From Octopus vulgaris (taxonomy: Eukaryota), in the NCBI GenBank assembly GCA_951406725.2, contig OX597821.1:87482001-87546000 (forward strand): a DNA stretch of 64,000 bases. Reading direction: 5' to 3'. The notes beneath the pieces are model-generated. The model saw only the letters and a list, made by a program, of their open reading frames with translations, ran no database searches and was not told the origin of the DNA. Position 1 is the stretch's first letter; each line of letters opens with the position of its first letter. The translations under genes were made by a program, and so were the position numbers. This document shows, piece after piece, positions 10,141 to 52,333 of the stretch.

Positions 10141-10559
10141 GGAGTGGCGAGCTGACAGAAACGTTAACATGCCGGGCGAAATGCGTAGCCGTATTTCGTC
10201 TGTCTTTACGTTCTGAGTTCAAATTCCGCCGAGGTCGACTTTGCCTTTCATCCTTTCGGAGTCGATTAAATAAGTACCAGTTACGCACTGGGGTCGATAT
10301 AATCGACTTAATCCATTTGTCTGTCCTTGTTTGTCCTCTCTGTGTTTAGCCCCTTGTGAGTAGTAAAGAAATAGGTATTTTGTATGCCGCTACGTTCTGA
10401 GTTCAAATTCCGCTGAGGTCAACTTTGCCTTTCATCCTTTCGGGATCCATTAAATAAGTAACAGTTACGCACTGGGGTCGATATAATCGACTTAATCCGT
10501 TTGTCTGTCCTTGTTTGTCCCCTCTGTGTTTAGCCCCTTGTGGGTAGTAAAGAAATAGG
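10141..10559 (+). mobile_element. tRNA-derived SINE, family B, with tandemly duplicated body
   Basis: GGCGAGCTGACAGAAACGTTA..GAGTTCAAATTCCGCCGAGGTCGACTTTGCCTTTCATCC..GTAAAGAAATAG; body repeated from ~10376. Confidence 0.9.
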
Positions 10560-11994: not shown

Positions 11995-13222
11995 CATTTC
12001 AAGGCATTTGCCTTCCAATGGACAGCAAGTCTTATCTTTGAAGTTGCAGTTCCTCAGATTAGATTCGGCACTGTAGTTGTTTGTAGTAATAATTTTCGTG
12101 TTATGCTGGTTAATAAGATAGGCGTTTTTGCAACAAGAATATATAACCTTCAGTGTTCTATTAAATATTCTGTAGAACTTATGGCTTGATTGAAAATGTT
12201 TAGAAACGAATTTTAAGAATTCCCTACCTATATTAGTCTTTACGGCAATATTAAATGCGGGTTTAAACCACAAAACCTTCCTAGTTCTAGTCCTACATGG
12301 TCTATTATTGTTGGAATTAACTTGACTATGCTGGATCTTCTCTGAGAATCCACTTTTTCTTAATGCATTATTGTATTACAGCGGAGCGTTTTGGAATGCT
12401 GTCTCAACTGAAGGAATTGATGATATTCGCCTTCCTACATTCTTAACTAGGTTCTTAAGAATTACGGGTGGATGATTAGATTCTTTGCTCATATAACATA
12501 GCTTTTCATTGGACTTACGGTAGGGCTTAAATTTATCTAATTGTAAATCTAAGTTGATATCTAAAACATTTACGTTATTAAGGTTACTTTCTATCGTAAT
12601 CCGTAAGCCCATTCTTTAGAAGTAAGTAATCAGATTCTTCCCAAGTTTATCTAACTCTTGGCCGTTTAAATTATGGGTGACTATAAGACCGTCATCCCTG
12701 TAAAATCCTGCATCTATAAAAGGGAATTCTAGATGCAGATTATGCAAAATATAAGTTCCTATAAGCATACACAACTCTGCCCCATCATATGCCCCTTCGG
12801 TACATTGAAAAGAGAATCCTCACTTTTTTTGACCTAGGTGGAAATCATAGTAAAAAGGAAGGGATTTCCTTGCATGCAGGATAATATCTATTTCCGTGCT
12901 ATCGATGGTGACACACTACATGGCGAAGTCTAATGCTTTTAGAAGCAAAGGCCTAGATATTGACGGATAAAAATCGACAATATCAAACTGCGTAAATTTG
13001 CAGTTATGCTTATGGCTAATCCCTTTGAACCAATCTATCACTGACTTACTATTTTTCCAAATCCCTAAATTTAATTCACTATTTAACTTGCTTAAAATAT
13101 GATCTAAAATATATTTGCTAATAATGCCTATTTCAGTTTTAGCTGGGTTAATTAGTCTACATTTAGGGATTCTATTGAAATTAGCTTTGTGGTCTTTTAG
13201 GGTAATAAAGGGTTGGCATGGG
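11995..13222 (-). pseudogene. Penelope-like element reverse transcriptase pseudogene (RT, thumb, Cys/His linker); GIY-YIG not seen
   Basis: FITLKDHKANFNRIPKCRLINPAKTEIG..QFDIVDFYPSI (motif A), GAYDGAELC (motif B), GFYRDDGL (YxDD, ~12685-12710), SNHPPVILKNL thumb, WFKPAFNIAVKTNIGREFL..KHF..IFNR..YSC..HN..CN..CPLEGKCL; broken by frameshifts and stops. Confidence 0.85.
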
Positions 13223-13224
13223 GG

Positions 13225-13392
13225 AAACCAATGAAACAAGACCATTTTCGAATGTGTATCTAACAAACTAATTGTATATTTATGCATATAACCTTATTTT
13301 TGCTCCATTCTAAACAAAAGTGTCCGACGAACGGAAACATGAAACTCTGAGTAACAGATTTTTGTGATATTTTTGCTGCTTTTTAATAAAGC

Positions 13393-13713: not shown

Positions 13714-13796
13714 AGACTACACGTGTTTCGTGGTTATATTTTCAATTTGATAACAATAAAATCAATTCAATTTCAATATAGTCACTCATCAGGTCT
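13714..13796 (-). ncRNA. Type I hammerhead ribozyme in pLTR-like unit 13488-13800
   Basis: Minus strand AGAC-CUGAUGA-GUGACUAUAUU...AAUAUAACCAC-GAAA-C-ACGU-GUA^GUCU: stem I AGAC/GUCU, stem II 9/11 pairs, palindromic stem III ACACGUGU. Confidence 0.75.
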
Positions 13797-25731: not shown

Positions 25732-28600
25732 ACACTATTTTCACCCCAATAGATGAAATTGTAAATGACATTAATACACAAAGTACTTTTCCTAAAGATA
25801 CTCTAGGGATCACAAATTCTGCCTGTCTCGAAGAAAAATTTACAAGAAACATCAGTTGATATGCACAAACAAAATTAAATGAAACCATAACTCTGAAAAA
25901 AAATTGGGGGATCAACGCAAACAAGCATATTGGAAACGCATTTGATGTGATAAAATAACCAATAGCTACCAAATTTGTCGAAACAAAGAAAACCCAATCC
26001 TTCACCAGAAAATTCTTCATTAGAGTTGGAAAGGGTGAAAGGTAGAAGAGAAAGCGATACATGCAAACTTTGCATTATGCCGTCTGGAAACAGAAATAAA
26101 CCGCCAAAAAAGAAAAGTTTGGTTTGAAGAAAAGCGCAAAACAACTGATGCAGTCATGTTTGCTTAAATCTCAGAACGAAGTGATAGTCAAAGTGAAAAA
26201 CTACAAAAAACTATGGAAAGAAGACACCAAACGAGGTGAGGGAAAAAACTGTAAAAATGTGGGAAACAACAAGAGTGGTTCATTAATTACGAAAATAACT
26301 TTGGAGAAAAACCTATTATGAAAACAAAAGCACAACGAAAAAATACAGACAAATCACAGAAAAAGATGAAAATCGGCCCCAGAGGAGTCAGACGAAAATA
26401 CAGATTTCCAGTCATCCAAAGACATATGCGAGATGGCCTCAAGTTAATCCCAAATGCAAACTACGATTCCAAAACAAGATACTACCACAAACAAACACGC
26501 AAGATATAAGAAGACAACCACCATCCCATTATACCAAATGCCCTAGATGTACAAACACATGGAAAGAAAGACAAAGGAAAAACAGACAAAATAAGTAATA
26601 AAACAAATAAATATCATGGAAGATCAAAAAATCTTCGGTTAACGACCAGCAATCCCAAACATCCAGAATGGCCAAACAAGCATACAAAGCGATAGGAAGG
26701 AGACAGATAGATAACACAGAATATTGTCTCACCTACGAAGAAACAAGAACCTCTGAAGTTGAAAACGGGGACACAATATTACAACTCCATTTCTAGGGAA
26801 AACCTACGACAACCGGGACCCAGATTCGATGACACAGAGATTTTAATAAACCCATACAATAGGTAGAATCTAAAATTCTAAAATTATACATTTATCAAAA
26901 AAAAAAAAAAGTCCTCAAGGCGCAGGAGTGGCTGTCTGGTAACTAGCTTGCTTACCAACCACATGGTTCCGAGTTCAGTCCCACTGTGTGGCACCTTGGG
27001 CAAGTGTCTTCTACTATAGTCTCGGGCCAACCAAAGCCTTGTGAGTGGATTTGGTAGACGGAAACTGAAAGAAGCGCGGCTTATATATGTATATATATAT
27101 ATGTATATATGTGTATATGTTTGTGTGTCTGTGTTTGTGCCTCCAACATCGCTTGACAACCGATGCTGCTGTGTTTATGTCCCCGTAACTTAGCGTTTCG
27201 GCAAAAGAGACCCATAGAATAAGTGCTTGGCTTACAAAGAATAACTCCAGGGGTCGATTTGCTCTACTAAAGGCGGTGCTCCAGCATGGCCACAGTCAAA
27301 TGACTGAAATAAGTAAAAGAAAGAATAAAAGAATAACAAAAATGAAATAGATTTTTCACTGAAAGGTTTCAGATTTATCCCTATACCTAATTCTAACCTC
27401 AAAGAACTAAAAGTCGCAGACAGTGAATATTTTAGTCGCTGTTTACGCTTCATGGAATTCCTCGGCAATAAGAATATAAATGACGAGTCAATTGTCAGAA
27501 ATAAATCCTACTTCAGCCCCCTACAAGGGGAATGACAAGCATTTAGATACATATAAAGATACAATTTCCGAACCCCCTCTTAGTTCCCGTAAATATAAAG
27601 AAGAAAAAGGGGGCTTTACTAGTACTAAAAAAAAGACGACTAAATCATCCCAAGATAATCGTACAAGGGTGGAAGCGATCGTGGTTATGGACCATGACAA
27701 TTGTAAAGACAAAATATTGGAACGTTTAACAGACAAAAATTACTATAAGGAAGAAACAAGAAATCTAGAAAAAACAAAAATGAATAAAATCAGAACATAT
27801 TTTAACCAAAACCCAAACTTCTTCACATATAAAAAGAAGATAGATTACTTATGTAACTCTGAAATTAAAGAGAGCGATTTCTACGGATTATTCAAGATTC
27901 ATAAAAGGTCAGAAATATAGAGAACCATAAGTGAACAGAAGAAGCAGTTCATAAAATTAGAAAGGCCCACTGATCTCAGATTGAGATCAATAGTTGCTGG
28001 CCACAATCTCCAACACAACGACGTAGTCATCTTTTAGATATGCTAGTTAAACTATTATACCAAGTAATACCCAGCTATATGCGAGTACGAGACGATATGT
28101 ATTTCTCAAATATATTCCGCCCATTATCCCAGAAGTTCTGATATTATCCTTACAAGTTCTGATATTATCCTTACAAGTTCTGATATTAGTAATCTTTATT
28201 CTAACATATTTCACACTTTGGGCCTGGAAGCAATCAAACACTGAGTAGAAAAACAGAAGATAAGCGAACGTTTCAAAAGGCTTTTTTTCGTTACTGAAGC
28301 CACACGCCTTGTACAAGAAGAAAACACCTTTAACTTTGATGGTAAAATATCGACAAAGGCAGGTCACAGCTATAGGGACGACATTTAAACCTCATATACT
28401 AACCTGGTGGTTGGTTTTTTAGAAGTTAAAATATCCAAGAAAGTAGACAAAAGTTTCAAGACAAAAGTTTCAAGACCAAAGTTTCATTGGAAAGTGGAAA
28501 CCCTCCTTCGATAAATACCATATGTTGTAGGAAAAATCAAGCGATCTACAAATATTCACTAACTTGAGAAATTCTTATTAAACATTAGTTCCTAGATGAA
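25730..28600 (+). pseudogene. Second, heavily decayed Penelope-like element ORF (N-terminal region and RT), interrupted by a SINE
   Basis: NSKIIHLSKK [SINE] NEIDFSLKGFRFIPIP..IVRNKSYF..AIVVMD..FYGLFKIHKRSEI..PTDLRLRSIVAG..SSDISNLYSNI..LGLEAIKH..YRQRQVTAIGT (Penelope-type FYGLPKIHK, RPIV, DxxxLYxNI, QxxGTAMG). Assignment of 25730-26870 is less certain. Confidence 0.75.
26919..27335 (+). mobile_element. SINE family A inserted in PLE ORF
   Basis: GGCGCAGGAGTGGCTG head to AAAAGAATAA tail; PLE translation resumes on both sides. Confidence 0.9.
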
Positions 28601-42880: not shown

Positions 42881-43495
42881 TCTTAAAGGGGACATAGGAT
42901 ATGAAAAGGTAATCGAAAGGGATGCAGCGATGGTAGAATTTCCCTTAGGTATAGAAAACACAAAGGAGTTATTTTTCTCTGCAAATTGAAACTATTTTAG
43001 GACAGAATTGGTGGTGAAGTGAAAGAAGGAAAGAGAGATAGAGACAGACAGATAAAATAGATAGATAGATAGAAAGAGAGAGAGAGAGAGAGAGAAGAAG
43101 GGAGAGTTAGAGTAAGAGAAACTAGAGGCAAGGGAGAGAAACAGATAGATGAGAGAAAGAGGTGGGAGTAAGAGAAACTGGTAGCGACATGAGAAGACGG
43201 CAAGGAAAAAGGATGAAAATAAGCTGAAATAGAAGATACAGAGATAAGTAAGGACAGAGAAAGTGATGGATAGATGTACAATCTATGGATTAACAAACAC
43301 AGAGAAAGAAAGTGAGAGATAAAACATCAAATCTGATTGGATAAAAGGGACAAGGTGAATGCTGGAGATAATCTTGACTAATAGATGATGGTAAAATATA
43401 CAGTATTTAGGCGCAGTAGCGGCTGTGTGGTAAAAAGCTTGCTCCCCAACCACACGGTCTCGGGTTCAGTAGACAGAAACTGAAAGAAGCCCGCC

Positions 43496-43533
<38 letters not shown>

Positions 43534-43576
43534 CAATAATAAATCTCTGAGCGAGATATAAACAGTAACTGCTCTA

Positions 43577-43688
43577 TAACATAAGAGGGATCAGCCATCT
43601 GAATGTGGCTAGGGTCAGGGCGGGGTAACACCCCCACCACCCCGCCCTGACCCTAGCCACATTCAGATGGCTGATCCCTCTTATGTTA
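43577..43688. repeat. Perfect 50-bp inverted repeat, 12-nt spacer, between (TA)n tracts
   Basis: TAACATAAGAGGGATCAGCC..GGGCGGGGT (43577-43626) and its reverse complement (43639-43688). Confidence 0.9.
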
Positions 43689-43841
43689 GATATATATATA
43701 TATATAGTTAATCCAAACATGAACAAAGAGAAAACACAACAACGCGAGGAGGTGGAAATTTCGAACCTGAGTTCTCATTCCTAAGGTGTTTTTCGATGTT
43801 ATTATTAATTATTATTACTATTATTATCAATTCTTCTTCTT

Positions 43842-43919
<78 letters not shown>

Positions 43920-43950
43920 ATCACTGCCTCGAATCGAACTCGGAGTCAGC

Positions 43951-43990
43951 CTGATGAAGGGCGGAGGGCATATCAGCCGAAACGTGTTAA
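43951..43990 (+). ncRNA. Degenerate hammerhead core, stem I lost
   Basis: CUGAUGA-AG-GGC..GCC-GAAA-C-GU-GUU; upstream sequence does not pair with downstream. Confidence 0.35.
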
Positions 43991-44835
43991 CAACAAACAA
44001 GATGAGGACAAAAATCCGTCAAATGTTAACAATGTAAATAATGTACATAATTCCTCATCTCTTAAATATAGAACTATATTGCTCACTGAATATACTGCAT
44101 AATGTTTCTGCACAGGGAGTTCAAGCTTAGGCATAAGTAAAGGTCTTTTATTCCTTCAATTGCAGATCGATAAAATAAGGAATCAGAAAAAAAAAAAAAA
44201 TTATCCAGCAAGGATTTTGCGTAACTCCAGATACTGAAGTGTTGAGTAAAATGTGAGTTGAATTTCGAATTAGGATAAAATTACGAAGAAAACAACACAA
44301 TCTCTCGTCAAAAATAAAACAATAAGTTTATGGTAAAACGATTCCAACCTATGTATTTTGCAACAACGCCATAATAAATTGGTGCATAGTGGTGCAAGAG
44401 GGAGAGAAACGTTATCCAGTGAACATCATTCTTCCTCCTCCTCTACTACTACAACTACTAAACCGTTGTTTATGGTGAGGGAGATTCTTGTTATGAACAC
44501 ACACAGACACACACACACACACATACATTACACTCTCGCATGTAAAACAAGATGGGAAAATAATAACCGAAATTCAAAGCTAGAATCAAAGATAGCGTTA
44601 TATGCAATTGAATATCTTTCATGTAACCGAACATCCGACTGACTATATATATATATATGAACATTTAATGCGGTTTTAGAGTCAAGTTTTGACTGCTATT
44701 TCCAGCGTGGAGGTATCTCTTAGATACCCTAAATTATAATTTTAAATAATTATTACCCTTGAAAGGTTTTTATTCCCATGCTGGCCACCTGATAAGATCG
44801 GTATTTAAATATCGACCATGTCCTCATTTATATAA

Positions 44836-44922
<87 letters not shown>

Positions 44923-45104
44923 TATGACCATAGCATCTTGTTTTGGCTACACGCGGGTGGGAAGGGGCTGGTGACACAATCCTTTCATTCACACTTTGAG
45001 TTTGGTGATACTAGTTGCGGATTCTAGCTCGCTCTGATACTGAGTTGAGTTGGTGCCTTCTAGTATCTCAAAATTCAATATATAATCACTTATGATTATA
45101 GTAT

Positions 45105-45204
45105 TCTACGCTGAAGAGAAAAGAAGTTTGGGTAACGTAGAATTATTTAATATTTAATTCTTATGCTTTCCTAAAAACTTGATTTCGAAACGTGCGTCCG
45201 TAGA
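45105..45204 (+). ncRNA. Type I hammerhead ribozyme, copy 1 (predicted cleavage after 45198)
   Basis: UCUACG-CUGAAGA-[69-nt stem II: GAAA/UUUC, AAGUUU/AAACUU, GAAUUA/UAAUUC]-GAAA-C-GUGC-GUC^CGUAGA; perfect 6-bp stem I. Confidence 0.85.
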
Positions 45205-45700
45205 TAACTTAAAATTGTATGATAGATTGCCGTCAATTCATTCTCTCTTACCTGTTTGTGTCTGCCTTCCAATTGCTGTGTTTTTTACTGAGATCTCCCT
45301 TTTTAGTAGAAGAAATAGCTATAACTCTTTGACTGCTATTTCTAAATTCGGTCTGTGGTAAGGCAATTCGTTGCTAAACCCTTTATTGCTTAGTATTACT
45401 TAAATTTTCCTCGAATGAGGCTTTTACATGCCGAAGACTACTTGGTGTAATTGATAATTATTCCAAATTAATTAATTTCACCCTTCATTATTACGGATAA
45501 CCATATTTTATCTCAGTAGATGACCATAGCATCTTGTTTTGGCTACACGCGGGTGGGAAGGGGCTGGTGACACAATCCTTTCATTCACACTTTGAGTTTG
45601 GTGATACTAGTTGCGGATTCTAGCTCGCTCTGATACTGAGTTGAGTTGGTGCCTTCTAGTATCTCAAAATTCAATATATAATCACTTATGATTATAGTAT

Positions 45701-45800
45701 TCTACGCTGAAGAGAAAAGAAGTTTGGGTAACGTAGAATTATTTAATATTTAATTCTTATGCTTTCCTAAAAACTTGATTTCGAAACGTGCGTCCGTAGA
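45701..45800 (+). ncRNA. Type I hammerhead ribozyme, copy 2 (predicted cleavage after 45794)
   Basis: Identical to 45105-45204, 596 nt downstream. Confidence 0.85.
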
Positions 45801-46112
45801 TAACTTAAAATTGTATGATAGATTGCCGTCAATTCATTCTCTCTTACCTGTTTGTGTCTGCCTTCCAATTGCTGTGTTTTTTACTGAGATTTCCCTTTTT
45901 AGTAGAAGAAATAGCTATAACTCTTTGACTGCTATTTCTAAATTCGGTCTGTGGTAAGGCAATTCGTTGCTAAACCCTTTATTGCTTAGTATATATATAT
46001 ATATATATTCATAAATGAGGGTGAAAAATTAGATATTAATTTAATAATACCGTCAGTTTAACACCAAGTGGCCCAACACATAGAAACCAGGGAGACAGTA
46101 CAAATTTATATA

Positions 46113-46474
46113 TAAATATAAGAGAGTTAACGATAAGTGGCTAACTCTAGTGCTAGAAATAGCTCCTTATTCTGGTATAGCCACCGAAGATTTTTTCCAC
46201 AGCAGAAATAGCATTACCTTCAACGTAAGGGAAGCGAAATACAACAAAAAGATAGATTAATACTGAACAATTGTTTCCTTATCAGCATAATATGTAATTA
46301 TACTCACATATTTGTCTATAAGTCATCGGCAGCATTTGTCCTCGATACAATTTATCAGACTTCCTTACGTTGAAGGTAATGCTATTTCTGCTGTGGAAAA
46401 AATCTTCGGTGGCTATACCAGAATAAGGAGCTATTTCTAGCACTAGAGTTAGCCACTTATCGTTAACTCTCTTA

Positions 46475-46480
<6 letters not shown>
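46113..46480. repeat. 118-bp inverted repeat (46113-46230 / 46363-46480) in a pLTR-like unit
   Basis: TAAATATAAGAGAGTTAACG..CAACGTAAGG and its reverse complement; (TA)n flanks. Confidence 0.9.
46261..46334 (-). ncRNA. Type I hammerhead with U4C core change, probably impaired
   Basis: Minus strand UGCUG-CCGAUGA-CUUAU...AUAAG-GAAA-C-AAUU-GUU^CAGUA; palindromic ACAAUUGU. Confidence 0.6.
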
Positions 46481-46531
<51 letters not shown>

Positions 46532-46602
46532 GTTTATTAAAGCTGAAAAATGTATCCAAAGCGGTTACTCAGTGTTGTACGTTCCCACTAGTCGGACAGT
46601 TG

Positions 46603-46635
<33 letters not shown>

Positions 46636-46717
46636 TACAAGGGTACTACGTGAGCACCTGCATCGTTAAAAATAGAAGTCAAAAATACTTCTGTGCTACG
46701 AAATAGTTACAAAATTC

Positions 46718-47097
46718 GAGGCGCTCCGTTGGTACGAGGACGAGGGTTCCAGTTGATCCGATCAACGGAACAGCCTGCTCGTGAAATTAACGTACAAGTG
46801 GCTAAGCACTCCACAGAAACGTGTACTCTTAAAGTAGTCCTCGGAGAGATTCAGCGTGACACAGAAGGTTACAAGGCTGGTCCTTTGAAATAAAGGTACA
46901 ACAGAAAGAGGAAGAAAGAGGAAGAGAAAGTTGTGATGAAAGAGTACAGCAGGGTTCGCCACCACATCCTGTCGGAGCCTCGTGGAGCTTTAGGTGTTTT
47001 CGCTCAATAAACACTTACAACACCCGATCTGAAAATCGAAACCACGATCCTACGACCGCGAGTCTGCTATCCTAACCAATGGGCCATTGCGCCTCCA
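46718..47097 (-). mobile_element. SINE family C
   Basis: Colinear with 7559-7961; TSD-like GT(T/C)ACAAAATT. Confidence 0.9.
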
Positions 47098-47372
47098 CTG
47101 TCACAAAATTAATACAAGCATGGTAGGAAAAAATTCTACTGAACAATAAAATCGTTTTACCTCTGTTAGGTCAGCAAAAGTAATGCTGGTTAGTTTGATA
47201 TCATGATTTCGAATTTAGCGCCAAACGGCGCCTGATTCGCGTCACCCAAACCTGCCGGCCAGCAACTTCTAAAATTTTCCCCCATCATGCTTGCAAATTC
47301 ATTTGAAGTCGCCAAACACCACTTAAACAAACGAAATACGTGAAATTATTTATGTGTAAATATGAGAGTGAT

Positions 47373-47508
47373 AGTACTTGTCATAAAACCGTCACTAGTG
47401 GCAGTGAATACCATCTGTACAGGCAAAATTAATAAAATATATCTTTTATTAATTTTGCCTGTACGGCTGGTATTCGCTGCCACTAAGTGATGGTATTTTG
47501 ATAGTACT
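47373..47508. repeat. Imperfect palindrome / MITE-like hairpin, ~65-bp arms
   Basis: GTGGCAGTGAATACCATCTGTACAGGCAAAATTAATAAAA-tatatc-TTTTATTAATTTTGCCTGTACGGCTGGTATTCGCTGCCAC. Confidence 0.8.
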
Positions 47509-47847
47509 GGGGAGTCCCCCTTCGATCATGAACGACCATGGGATTGCACCTAGAAAGTTACCCTCCGAGGAACTAGTCCGGGCAAGATTGTTTATGGAAG
47601 ACCAGCAGTCGCCCATGCATACCAACCTCCCCTCTCCTCGCCATCGATGTTATCCAAGGGAAAGGCAATGGCTTGGCATCAGGCTTGGCATCAGTGATGT
47701 CGCAACTCATTTCTACAGCTGAGTTAACTGGAGCAACGTAAAATAAGTGTCTTGCTCAAGAACACGACACGCAGCCCGGTCCGGAATCGAACTCACAACC
47801 TCACGATCGTAAGCTCGACGCTCAAACCACTAAGCCATGCGCCTTCC
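47509..47847 (-). mobile_element. SINE with family D head and a different, RTE-like tail
   Basis: Head GAAGGCGCATGGCTTAGTGG..GAGTTCGATTCC and core match 8356; tail ends GCAATCCCATGGTCGTTCATGATCGAAGGGGGAC. Confidence 0.8.
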
Positions 47848-47877
47848 CTGATTGTAGTATCAGTCTCCTATATACTC

Positions 47878-47913
<36 letters not shown>

Positions 47914-48229
47914 ATAGGTATATATCATTAATGATAGAAAAATAAGTCAGTGATGGAGGTATTTTTCCTTACTATATTTCTAAATAGATATGTAAGTTGG
48001 GATATTTCTCAGGAAACTGTATATGACTATCTGATGCTTTGACGGTCCTGTCGTCTGCGTATGTAAACCCGGCTCTCCCGTGTACCAGTTCAAGCGTAAA
48101 GCCTATTTATGACTCTAGCCTTTGCAATAGTGACCAAGTGCCAAAACCTACAGAAGAGATGAAAACCGGCTATACTTAGGACAATTGCATAGTACAATAA
48201 TTAACGACGAATATGAAGCTGAAAGGGAA

Positions 48230-51242: not shown

Positions 51243-51660
51243 GAAGACGGCGAGTTGGTAGAAGCGTTAGCACGCCGGGCGAAATGCTTAGCGGTATTTC
51301 GTCTGCCGCTACGTTCTGAGTTCAAATTCCGCCGAGGTCGACTTTGCCTTTCATCCTTTCAGGGTCGATTAAATAAGTACCAGTTACGCACTGGAGTCAA
51401 TATAATCGACTTAATCCGTTTGTCTGTCCTTGTTTGTCCTCTCTGTGTTTAGTCCCTTGTGAGTAGTAAAGAAATAGGTATTTCGTCTGCCATTACGTTC
51501 TGAGTTCAAATTCCGCCGAGGTCGGCTTTGCCTTTCATCCTTTCGGGGTCGATAAATTAAGTACCATTTACGCACTAGTGTCGATATAATCGACTTAATC
51601 TGTTTGTCTGTCCTTGTTTGTCCTCTCTGTGTTTAGTCCCTTGTGGGTAGTAAAGAAATA
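51243..51660 (+). mobile_element. SINE family B with duplicated body and 13-bp TSD
   Basis: GGTATAAGCAAGA at 51227-51239 and 51661-51673; second body starts ~51478. Confidence 0.92.
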
Positions 51661-52333
51661 GGTATAAGCAAGACTTCGATGTTTTGGAAGCTCACTATTC
51701 AAACGAACCGCACACAATTAGCCTGATATTATACTAGAATATATTATATCGAAACCGGAGGAATGATAAACAAACCCAATCCCAGCAGAATTCGAACGCA
51801 GAGTGTAAGCATGAAACTAAAAACTATCAAAGTAAAGCAGAATTATCAATGTTTGTTATTTTTGTTGTTGTTATTGCAACTCCACTCTGATCGCTGCCCC
51901 ACCACTTCTTTCTGAGACAAGAACAAACAATAATAATAGCGACAAAAGAAATGATAATACATTAAGAATAAGAAGAATAAAGTGAGATAAATTCATTAAT
52001 ATACTTTTCAATTATGGTTTAAGTAAAACAACAAAGAAATGGAATATAACAATGATAAAAAGACGTAAAACAGACAACAAGTTAATAGGAATAAATAAAA
52101 ACGTGTTTCCTTTAGCTTTCGTTATTATTTGTTTCACGTAAAAACAAAGAGACGAAAAGGAAACGGGTAATCTTCTTTTATTATCTTCAAGATTTTCTTT
52201 GAGAGTTTTTTATTTTTATTTTTATGAAGATGTGGTGTGTGAATACGTTAGCTGGATGTAGTGGTGGGGTGGGGGGTGGATGCGTACTTATTTATGTGTG
52301 AGTATTATATTTATTTTATGTAATATCATATGC

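Follow-up and report, generated by a model that had tools for sequence, protein, structure and literature searches.

Introduction

In the metazoan species studied by Cervera and de la Pena (2020, PMC7229834), non-LTR retrozymes have units of 220-400 bp, and circular RNAs have been shown for them. According to the same report, the motifs of axolotl retrozymes cleave better as dimers, and Penelope-like elements (PLEs) were proposed as the mobiliser. In vertebrates, the consensus lengths of non-LTR retrozymes are given as 51-972 bp and most families have seven units or fewer (Li, Clavereau and Pollet 2026, bioRxiv 10.64898/2026.07.22.740005). In that account, catalogued elements were matched by 24 of the 57 frog families (PLEs in 21 of 22), and of nine frog dimers assayed in vitro eight failed to cleave. 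By its account, the survey sampled no mollusc, leans to local amplification and leaves the insertion ends unmapped. In both studies it is a hypothesis that retrozymes spread by way of circular RNAs of which PLE enzymes make copies (PMC7229834; bioRxiv 10.64898/2026.07.22.740005).

PLEs themselves carry hammerheads. Those of the dimer type are described as having a helix III of 1-2 bp with a palindromic loop and low activity in vitro, and are expected to act as a dimer (Cervera and de la Pena 2014, PMC4209133). The hallmarks of PLE insertions are 5' truncation, partial tandems, an inverted arm and a tail at one end (Craig et al. 2021, PMC8557442). For Poseidon PAc of Anolis, two internal reverse-transcription start sites 3' of the hammerhead were shown in vitro to set the genomic ends, together with an AT-rich target and a tail (Frangieh et al. 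2024, PMC11167929). According to that report, the Anolis PLE was inserted from uncleaved linear RNA, unprocessed RNA was the main substrate, and hammerhead mutants were without effect.

Here we analysed a 64,000-nucleotide stretch of the Octopus vulgaris genome (assembly GCA_951406725.2, contig OX597821.1, positions 87,482,001 to 87,546,000; hereafter the window), in which a tandem double-hammerhead element had been noticed (hereafter the original prediction). The element is real and young, and it is of a known kind, ordinary as a type. When we searched the octopus and cephalopod literature on hammerheads, Penelope and retrozymes, we found no published description of the 596-bp family or of retrozyme insertion ends; repeat databases and some supplements lay outside this search, and the family may be catalogued.

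Results

Structure of the element in the window

The element is a single-armed insertion at 44924..45992 on the forward strand, in which 44924-45396 matches 45520-45992 over a common 473 bp, giving 1.8 head-to-tail units with a period of 596 bp. The sole mismatch between the two repeats is at 45295 versus 45891. Periodicity, flanks and repeat alignment thereby uphold the original prediction of 1.8 copies of a non-coding unit, differing by one substitution, within (TA)n. The left (TA)n target occupies 44829..44923 and also closes an adjoining related element at 44659-44832, and the right one was read at 45993..46008. The insertion overlaps these flanks by a 2-nt AT at its 5' junction and a 3-nt TAT at its 3' junction. 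The longest stop-to-stop reading frame in the unit has 67 codons.

Both units contain, in the order stem I, CTGAAGA, 69-nt stem II, GAAA, ACGTGCGT and GTC, a type I hammerhead on the forward strand, and the two motifs are identical. The first copy lies at 45105..45204, with a 6-bp stem I (45105-45110/45199-45204, TCTACG/CGTAGA), the core segments CTGAAGA (45111-45117) and GAAA (45187-45190), stem II at 45118-45186, a self-complementary stem III at 45190-45197 and a predicted cut after 45198. The second lies at 45701..45800, with its CTGAAGA core starting at 45707 and its predicted cut after 45794. Thus the intact motif claimed for each repeat (6-bp stem I, CUGAAGA, GAAA and GUC) was found in both units. 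We found CUGANGA, GAAA, NUH, stem I and a self-complementary minimal stem III, which are the elements of a dimer-type type I hammerhead. The monomer predicted between the cuts is 45199..45794, with 596 nt and 35% G+C.

Folding and a hammerhead model search had been proposed together as checks. When we folded the 69-nt stem II, it formed a long hairpin (z -3.0), with only 2 of 200 shuffles equally good. Co-folding of a two-unit transcript paired the ACGUGCGU stretches of the two units with a probability of 0.79-0.95, which supports the dimer-type assignment. The ACGUGCGU at 45190-45197 is that of this copy's subfamily and sister subfamilies have a perfect ACGUACGU, the predicted duplexes being -8.8 versus -9.8 kcal/mol. 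The model search came out otherwise: Rfam gave no hammerhead match in 43000-48000 of the window even at E≤1, likely because of the long stem II and the 2-bp stem III.

Downstream of the first hammerhead, motif search, alignment and folding delineated a conserved 3' module (45333..45490, forward strand) common to sister families. It consists of CTGCTATTTCTAA, a helix formed by 45347-45355 with 45427-45435, and a pair of hairpins with ACCCT after each. Junction mapping placed a short (S) end zone at 45386..45405 (unit positions 461-480, mostly 471, which is 45396). A long (L, tail) end zone at 45491..45511 (unit positions 566-586) is used by one arm of two-armed copies elsewhere, both zones being on the forward strand. 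The window copy itself ends at 45992, the equivalent of unit position 471, so its second 3' module, found by module search at 45929..45992 on the forward strand, is ended at the S end.

The family in the genome

A search of the same genome with the 596-bp unit brought up 1801 candidates; the 40 that were scored gave at least 148 matches, almost all of them with 96-100% identity. The dispersed arrays that the original prediction had suggested looking for are thus present; they are short, spread over many contigs and 98-100% alike. In these arrays, as in the window, consecutive units each carry a complete type I hammerhead, and no LTR layout was visible in the genomic arrays examined. The exact 18-nt ribozyme core gave 278 genome matches against none for a reversed control, and therefore the hammerhead is not there by chance. 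A looser pattern detected 795 complete hammerheads of this lineage genome-wide (reversed control, 0).

A 3' motif common to sister families of ~555-600 bp, derived from three diverged fragments, had 10,604 genome matches (control, 0). The sampled carriers of this motif are short truncated copies or tandem units of ~557-596 bp, and many of those reaching far enough upstream have a hammerhead ~130 nt before the motif with a stem II of 25-70 nt. Across subfamilies, hammerhead position N7 varies among A, T, G and C, stem I changes on both sides from TCTACG/CGTAGA to CCTACG/CGTAGG with the palindrome kept, and the base of stem II changes on both sides from GAAA/TTTC to GGAA/TTCC. These two-sided stem changes, few as independent events, point to selection on the predicted hammerhead fold.

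The large monomer and the 69-nt stem II had been taken as distinctive, and neither is. Published retrozyme consensus lengths span 51-972 bp in the range given by Li et al. (2026), and stem II hairpins of 56-70 nt also occur in sister families, in the second hammerhead of the window and in an intact PLE of ~980 aa. The proposed assignment to retrozymes is supported: the 596-bp family shows tandem hammerheads, 35% G+C and dispersed copies, and lacks coding capacity and an attached ORF. By every sequence criterion tested, the element is a non-LTR retrozyme, and it is likely a non-autonomous PLE.

Insertion ends and the 3' module

Copies of the family usually sit in (TA)n, with scattered 5' ends and two fixed 3' ends ~200 and ~300 nt beyond the predicted ribozyme cut. 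It is these downstream ends, which had been missed in the original prediction, and not the ribozyme cut, that bound the copies. When we counted distinct junctions from the motif to (TA)n over all motif-bearing loci collected, 137 of 148 fell into two zones 100 nt apart, at +50-79 (93 junctions) and at +150-179 (44 junctions). The 52 classed loci of the 596-bp family, which include two duplicates of one insertion, comprised 21 single-armed S copies, 17 two-armed L+S copies, two S+S copies, no L+L copy and 12 unclassified loci, some of these because the loci were cut off. Two-armed copies thus have one end type per arm in 17 of 19 cases (p=3.6e-4). Insertions are 0.3 to about 5 units long, with arrays of ~5 units at loci L100 and L184, and a target-site duplication is unreadable where the insertion lies inside (TA)n.

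The family therefore shows 5' truncation, partial tandems, an inverted 5' arm and two alternative 3' ends, all of them PLE-type features, although the two 3' ends are ~100 nt apart and not at the 30-40 nt of the usual PLE tail. The two fixed ends, used one per arm, match internal initiation by PLEs. Together with the (TA)n targets and the arms, this footprint supports the claim that a PLE enzyme mobilises the unit in trans, and we consider mobilisation of the PLE type very probable for the family. No pile-up of 5' ends was found at the ribozyme cut. We also considered a pile-up at unit position 1, as a possible transcription start, and rejected it, with two copies there and two at a control position.

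The 3' module is likely an RNA signal for the reverse transcriptase, a candidate role proposed from its structure and conservation. In 16 diverged representatives, the region that includes both ends forms a conserved structure: 95% of the cells are paired and covariation is 0.149 versus 0.116 in shuffled alignments, above all 500 shuffles. Pairs changing on both sides are only 2 of 25, a value that 378 of 500 shuffles equal and that may reflect one lineage. A second, re-wired hammerhead within the module was discarded: its CUGA/CCGA word is taken up in the pairing of helix 1 and shows no conservation as CUGANGA.

Search for a partner PLE

We recovered four intact, (TA)n-flanked PLE families from the genome, encoding proteins of 727, 811, 781 and ~980 aa, a sample in which Naiads are not represented. 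Pfam detected RVT_1 in the 811- and 781-aa proteins, GIY-YIG in the 781-aa protein and nothing in the 727- and ~980-aa proteins. By their motifs, we tentatively label the intact proteins Neptune-like and Hydra-like. The terminal repeats of the four families matched neither the unit by BLASTN nor the 3' module by nhmmer profile, and the unit or module hits within their loci are separate insertions. Where unit copies lie close to PLE ORFs, (TA)n lies between. When we compared the 727-, 811- and 781-aa proteins with 255 motif-bearing element bodies by tblastn, no hit was obtained; the search for copies attached to PLE ORFs that the original prediction had envisaged thus yielded none. Since no body contains a PLE fragment and no terminal repeat matches, the unit is not an ORF-linked pseudo-LTR in this sample.

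The ~980-aa PLE (L334:2026-4965 and 1.6-1.8 kb downstream) is young and intact, contains an Asn-rich insert, and has a hammerhead with a 60-nt stem II and two (TA)n-joined ends ~117 nt apart. By its architecture only, it is the best partner candidate. The intact 811-aa family has an overlapping upstream frame of 495 aa (L143:253-3998 and L254:1245-3587), and hammerheads with variant cores beginning UUGA seem, on visual inspection, to be present in both the 811-aa and the 781-aa family.

Other elements in the window

The adjoining element at 44659-44832 (forward strand, module profile) is a 5'-truncated copy of a distantly related abundant family with the same 3' module layout. We rejected it as an autonomous parent: 30 loci gave no PLE hit, and it looks like another short tandem family. 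Longer copies of that family have a hammerhead-like motif of their own and seem to consist of short, ORF-less units in tandem. Another type I hammerhead motif, unrelated to that of the 596-bp unit, is found at 13714-13796 on the reverse strand, with a 56-nt stem II, a perfect 8-nt palindrome and a GUA site. Some 500 nt downstream of it is a decayed PLE ORF (12001-13233), which shares 68% identity with the intact 727-aa family. Protein comparison revealed another decayed PLE fragment at 27347-28493 on the forward strand, 26-45% identical to the 811-aa family.

At 46099-46494, 132-bp inverted arms, 97% complementary, contain GCTATTTC words and have (TA)n at the end; these may represent a PLE-type insertion with two arms and not a MITE. 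A long hairpin with weak Rfam hits at 43550-43680 has arms that resemble, by eye, the 3' end of a 359-bp hammerhead family, of which it is probably a short two-armed insertion; the 359-bp unit shows no sequence match to the 596-bp unit. At 10207-10559 and 51293-51665, the window contains 184-bp near-dimers of a SINE-like repeat.

Variants within arrays

The base before the predicted cut is kept in 500 copies and absent in five, and among those five there are no clean (TA)n starts and one inversion junction at that site. As insertions do not start at the cut, the enzyme would read through this site, its template being either a ring closed by ligation or RNA left uncleaved.

Units differ by 0.25% within insertions versus 1.2% between them. 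In 51 insertions, we found 15 private variants present in every covering unit, four in some units and 60 in a single unit, 'private' being judged on these 51 insertions of one assembly, in which source arrays may be missing. The partly shared variants, four or, under a looser filter, five, occur in at least two units, the other units keeping the family base, and three of them are at mirror positions of the two arms (L017, L088 and L091). When we tested three fixed variants genome-wide, one had five matches, all in the units of its own insertion and in both arms, the second had three matches in its own insertion only, and the third was also found in one copy on another contig.

The fixed and single-unit variants have different spectra. 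Changes of A>G or T>C make up 11 of 15 fixed variants versus 15 of 60 single-unit variants (p=0.0008), and for A>G by itself the value is p=0.028, falling to 0.015 when three loci of older subfamilies are set aside, these tests having been picked after the data were seen. The strand bias of the fixed variants is slight (A>G 6 versus T>C 5). In insertion L023, private A>G changes occur on both strands of stem I in all units, a pattern that editing might give, though A>G is hardly commoner than T>C. Since their spectrum differs from that of single-unit variants, the fixed variants are unlike the outcome of conversion of ordinary genomic mutations. They fit changes in one RNA monomer before repeated copying, and so favour a repeatedly read monomer. 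The partly shared variants argue against a model of circles only, and suit multimer templates or conversion across inverted arms.

Unit sequences in sequencing runs

Words of the unit were found in 20 sequencing runs from nine studies under three organism labels, with 0.62-0.93 of the words present, and none of these runs is recorded as RNA. We examined eight runs, in whose contigs a ring and a tandem transcript would look alike. In run X1, whose kind was guessed as RNA, a contig of 626 letters bridges the cut, and this is 596+30, the length that a closed cycle would give. In run X3, of uncertain kind, a 709-letter contig bridges the cut and has non-unit letters at one end, as read-through would give. 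These bridging contigs show that the joined sequence is present, not circularity or cleavage. Unique flank bins are without cover in the guessed-RNA runs, which carries no weight as evidence. In runs X3 and X7, which belong to two studies, identical non-unit letters are joined before 45364 of the window, which suggests a single locus with read-through from its flank.

Discussion

We suggest the following course of events for the 596-bp family. Hammerheads acting in pairs would cleave tandem transcripts, and ligation would turn some of the resulting monomers into circles. The reverse transcriptase-endonuclease of a PLE would act in trans, nick (TA)n, attach to the conserved 3' module and use the TA overlap for priming. 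Its reverse transcription would start within the RNA at either of two fixed positions, ~200 or ~300 nt beyond the predicted cut. Running round the template for a variable distance, it would produce insertions of 0.3 to about 5 units, and the inverted arm would arise when priming happens again, at the tail site. The templates probably include uncleaved multimers as well. Taken as a whole, with both PLE mobilisation and a circular template, this is the model that we favour, at somewhat better than even chances. A stronger version, which we put forward tentatively and hold at rather less than even, is that the insertions record, in the genome, how a Penelope enzyme ran round individual circular RNAs: changes in the ring, some of them perhaps A-to-I edits, would be written into every unit and both arms, and the two-hairpin module, with more than 10,000 copies and no sampled autonomous parent, would set the two start sites.

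Here, we need to consider that the same PLE enzyme and the same start sites could operate on uncleaved multimers only, the hammerhead being weak or serving another purpose and circles taking no part in the copying. The Anolis experiments, as reported, speak for such a course, since hammerhead mutants inserted unaffected and unprocessed RNA was the main substrate (PMC11167929), as do the eight of nine frog dimers without cleavage in the vertebrate account (bioRxiv 10.64898/2026.07.22.740005). The mirror-unit variants at L017, L088 and L091 fit one variant unit copied by both arms, and the absence of a 5'-end pile-up at the cut would be expected on this course too. However, for variants that are fixed in 4-5 units and both arms and occur nowhere else in the assembly, a homogeneous source that has escaped notice would have to be postulated in every case. 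Copying from linear RNA can make arrays shorter but not longer, and arrays of ~5 units that are young are nevertheless present (L100 and L184). The fixed and single-unit variant spectra differ as well. We therefore regard copying from linear RNA only as rather unlikely.

Growth at the DNA level would work differently, with a PLE inserting short copies and the arrays then expanding and being homogenised by unequal crossover or conversion. This would account for the low divergence within arrays and for the partly spread variants, and local amplification is discussed in print (Li et al. 2026, bioRxiv 10.64898/2026.07.22.740005). It is difficult to reconcile with fixed variants that span inverted arms and have a spectrum unlike that of single-unit mutations, and with arrays that are short, lie on many contigs and are 98-100% alike; we consider it improbable. 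If the unit were merely a pseudo-LTR belonging to an autonomous PLE, with truncated 3' ends being what is seen, then its hammerhead, tail and target would all be as in PLE pseudo-LTRs, which they are, and PLE families have been only partly sampled. On the contrary, none of 255 bodies hit the three PLE proteins by tblastn, the units abut head to tail, and copies near PLE ORFs are set off by (TA)n. Because the sampled copies have no linked ORF, the pseudo-LTR explanation is already contradicted for them, and overall it is the least credible, with a very small chance of being right.

The interest of the family lies in making ring copying testable and not in the element itself. It is so young and has so many copies that the ring-copying hypothesis can be tested on its insertion ends and on the variants within its arrays. 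The analysis provides two start sites and a candidate structure for enzyme binding, and the genome has at least four intact PLE families as possible partners. If it is true that RNA-level changes become fixed into arrays, this would be a route from RNA editing or errors into the genome.

Comparison with known systems

The 596-bp family resembles the metazoan retrozymes, as characterised in PMC7229834, in that it consists of tandem repeats without coding capacity, has a single type I hammerhead in each unit and has a G+C below 50%. It differs from them in its 596-bp unit and its long stem II, and circles, shown there, are a prediction here. The insertion-footprint analysis made here has no counterpart in the parts of that study considered (PMC7229834). 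A length of 596 bp falls inside the vertebrate retrozyme range, and a PLE origin is argued in that survey as well; unlike the frog families matched to catalogued elements in it, the 596-bp unit has no parent that we could find (bioRxiv 10.64898/2026.07.22.740005).

Compared with the dimer-type PLE hammerheads outlined in PMC4209133, the octopus motif has the same minimal helix III with a palindrome, whereas helix II is 4-8 bp there and a 69-nt hairpin here. The 596-bp family has (TA)n targets and head-to-tail non-autonomous copies in common with the PLEs presented in PMC8557442, which include the Hydra and Naiad clades and non-autonomous Chlamys elements, e.g. MRC1. Non-autonomous Chlamys elements are depicted there as resembling their autonomous kin at the 3' end and as mostly without hammerheads, while the 596-bp family has a hammerhead and no autonomous match was found for it. 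Poseidon PAc, in the account of PMC11167929, is autonomous and has its sites 30-40 nt apart, in contrast to a 596-bp unit without an ORF and with sites ~100 nt apart, but the two systems are alike in having two 3' ends beyond the hammerhead and an AT-rich target.
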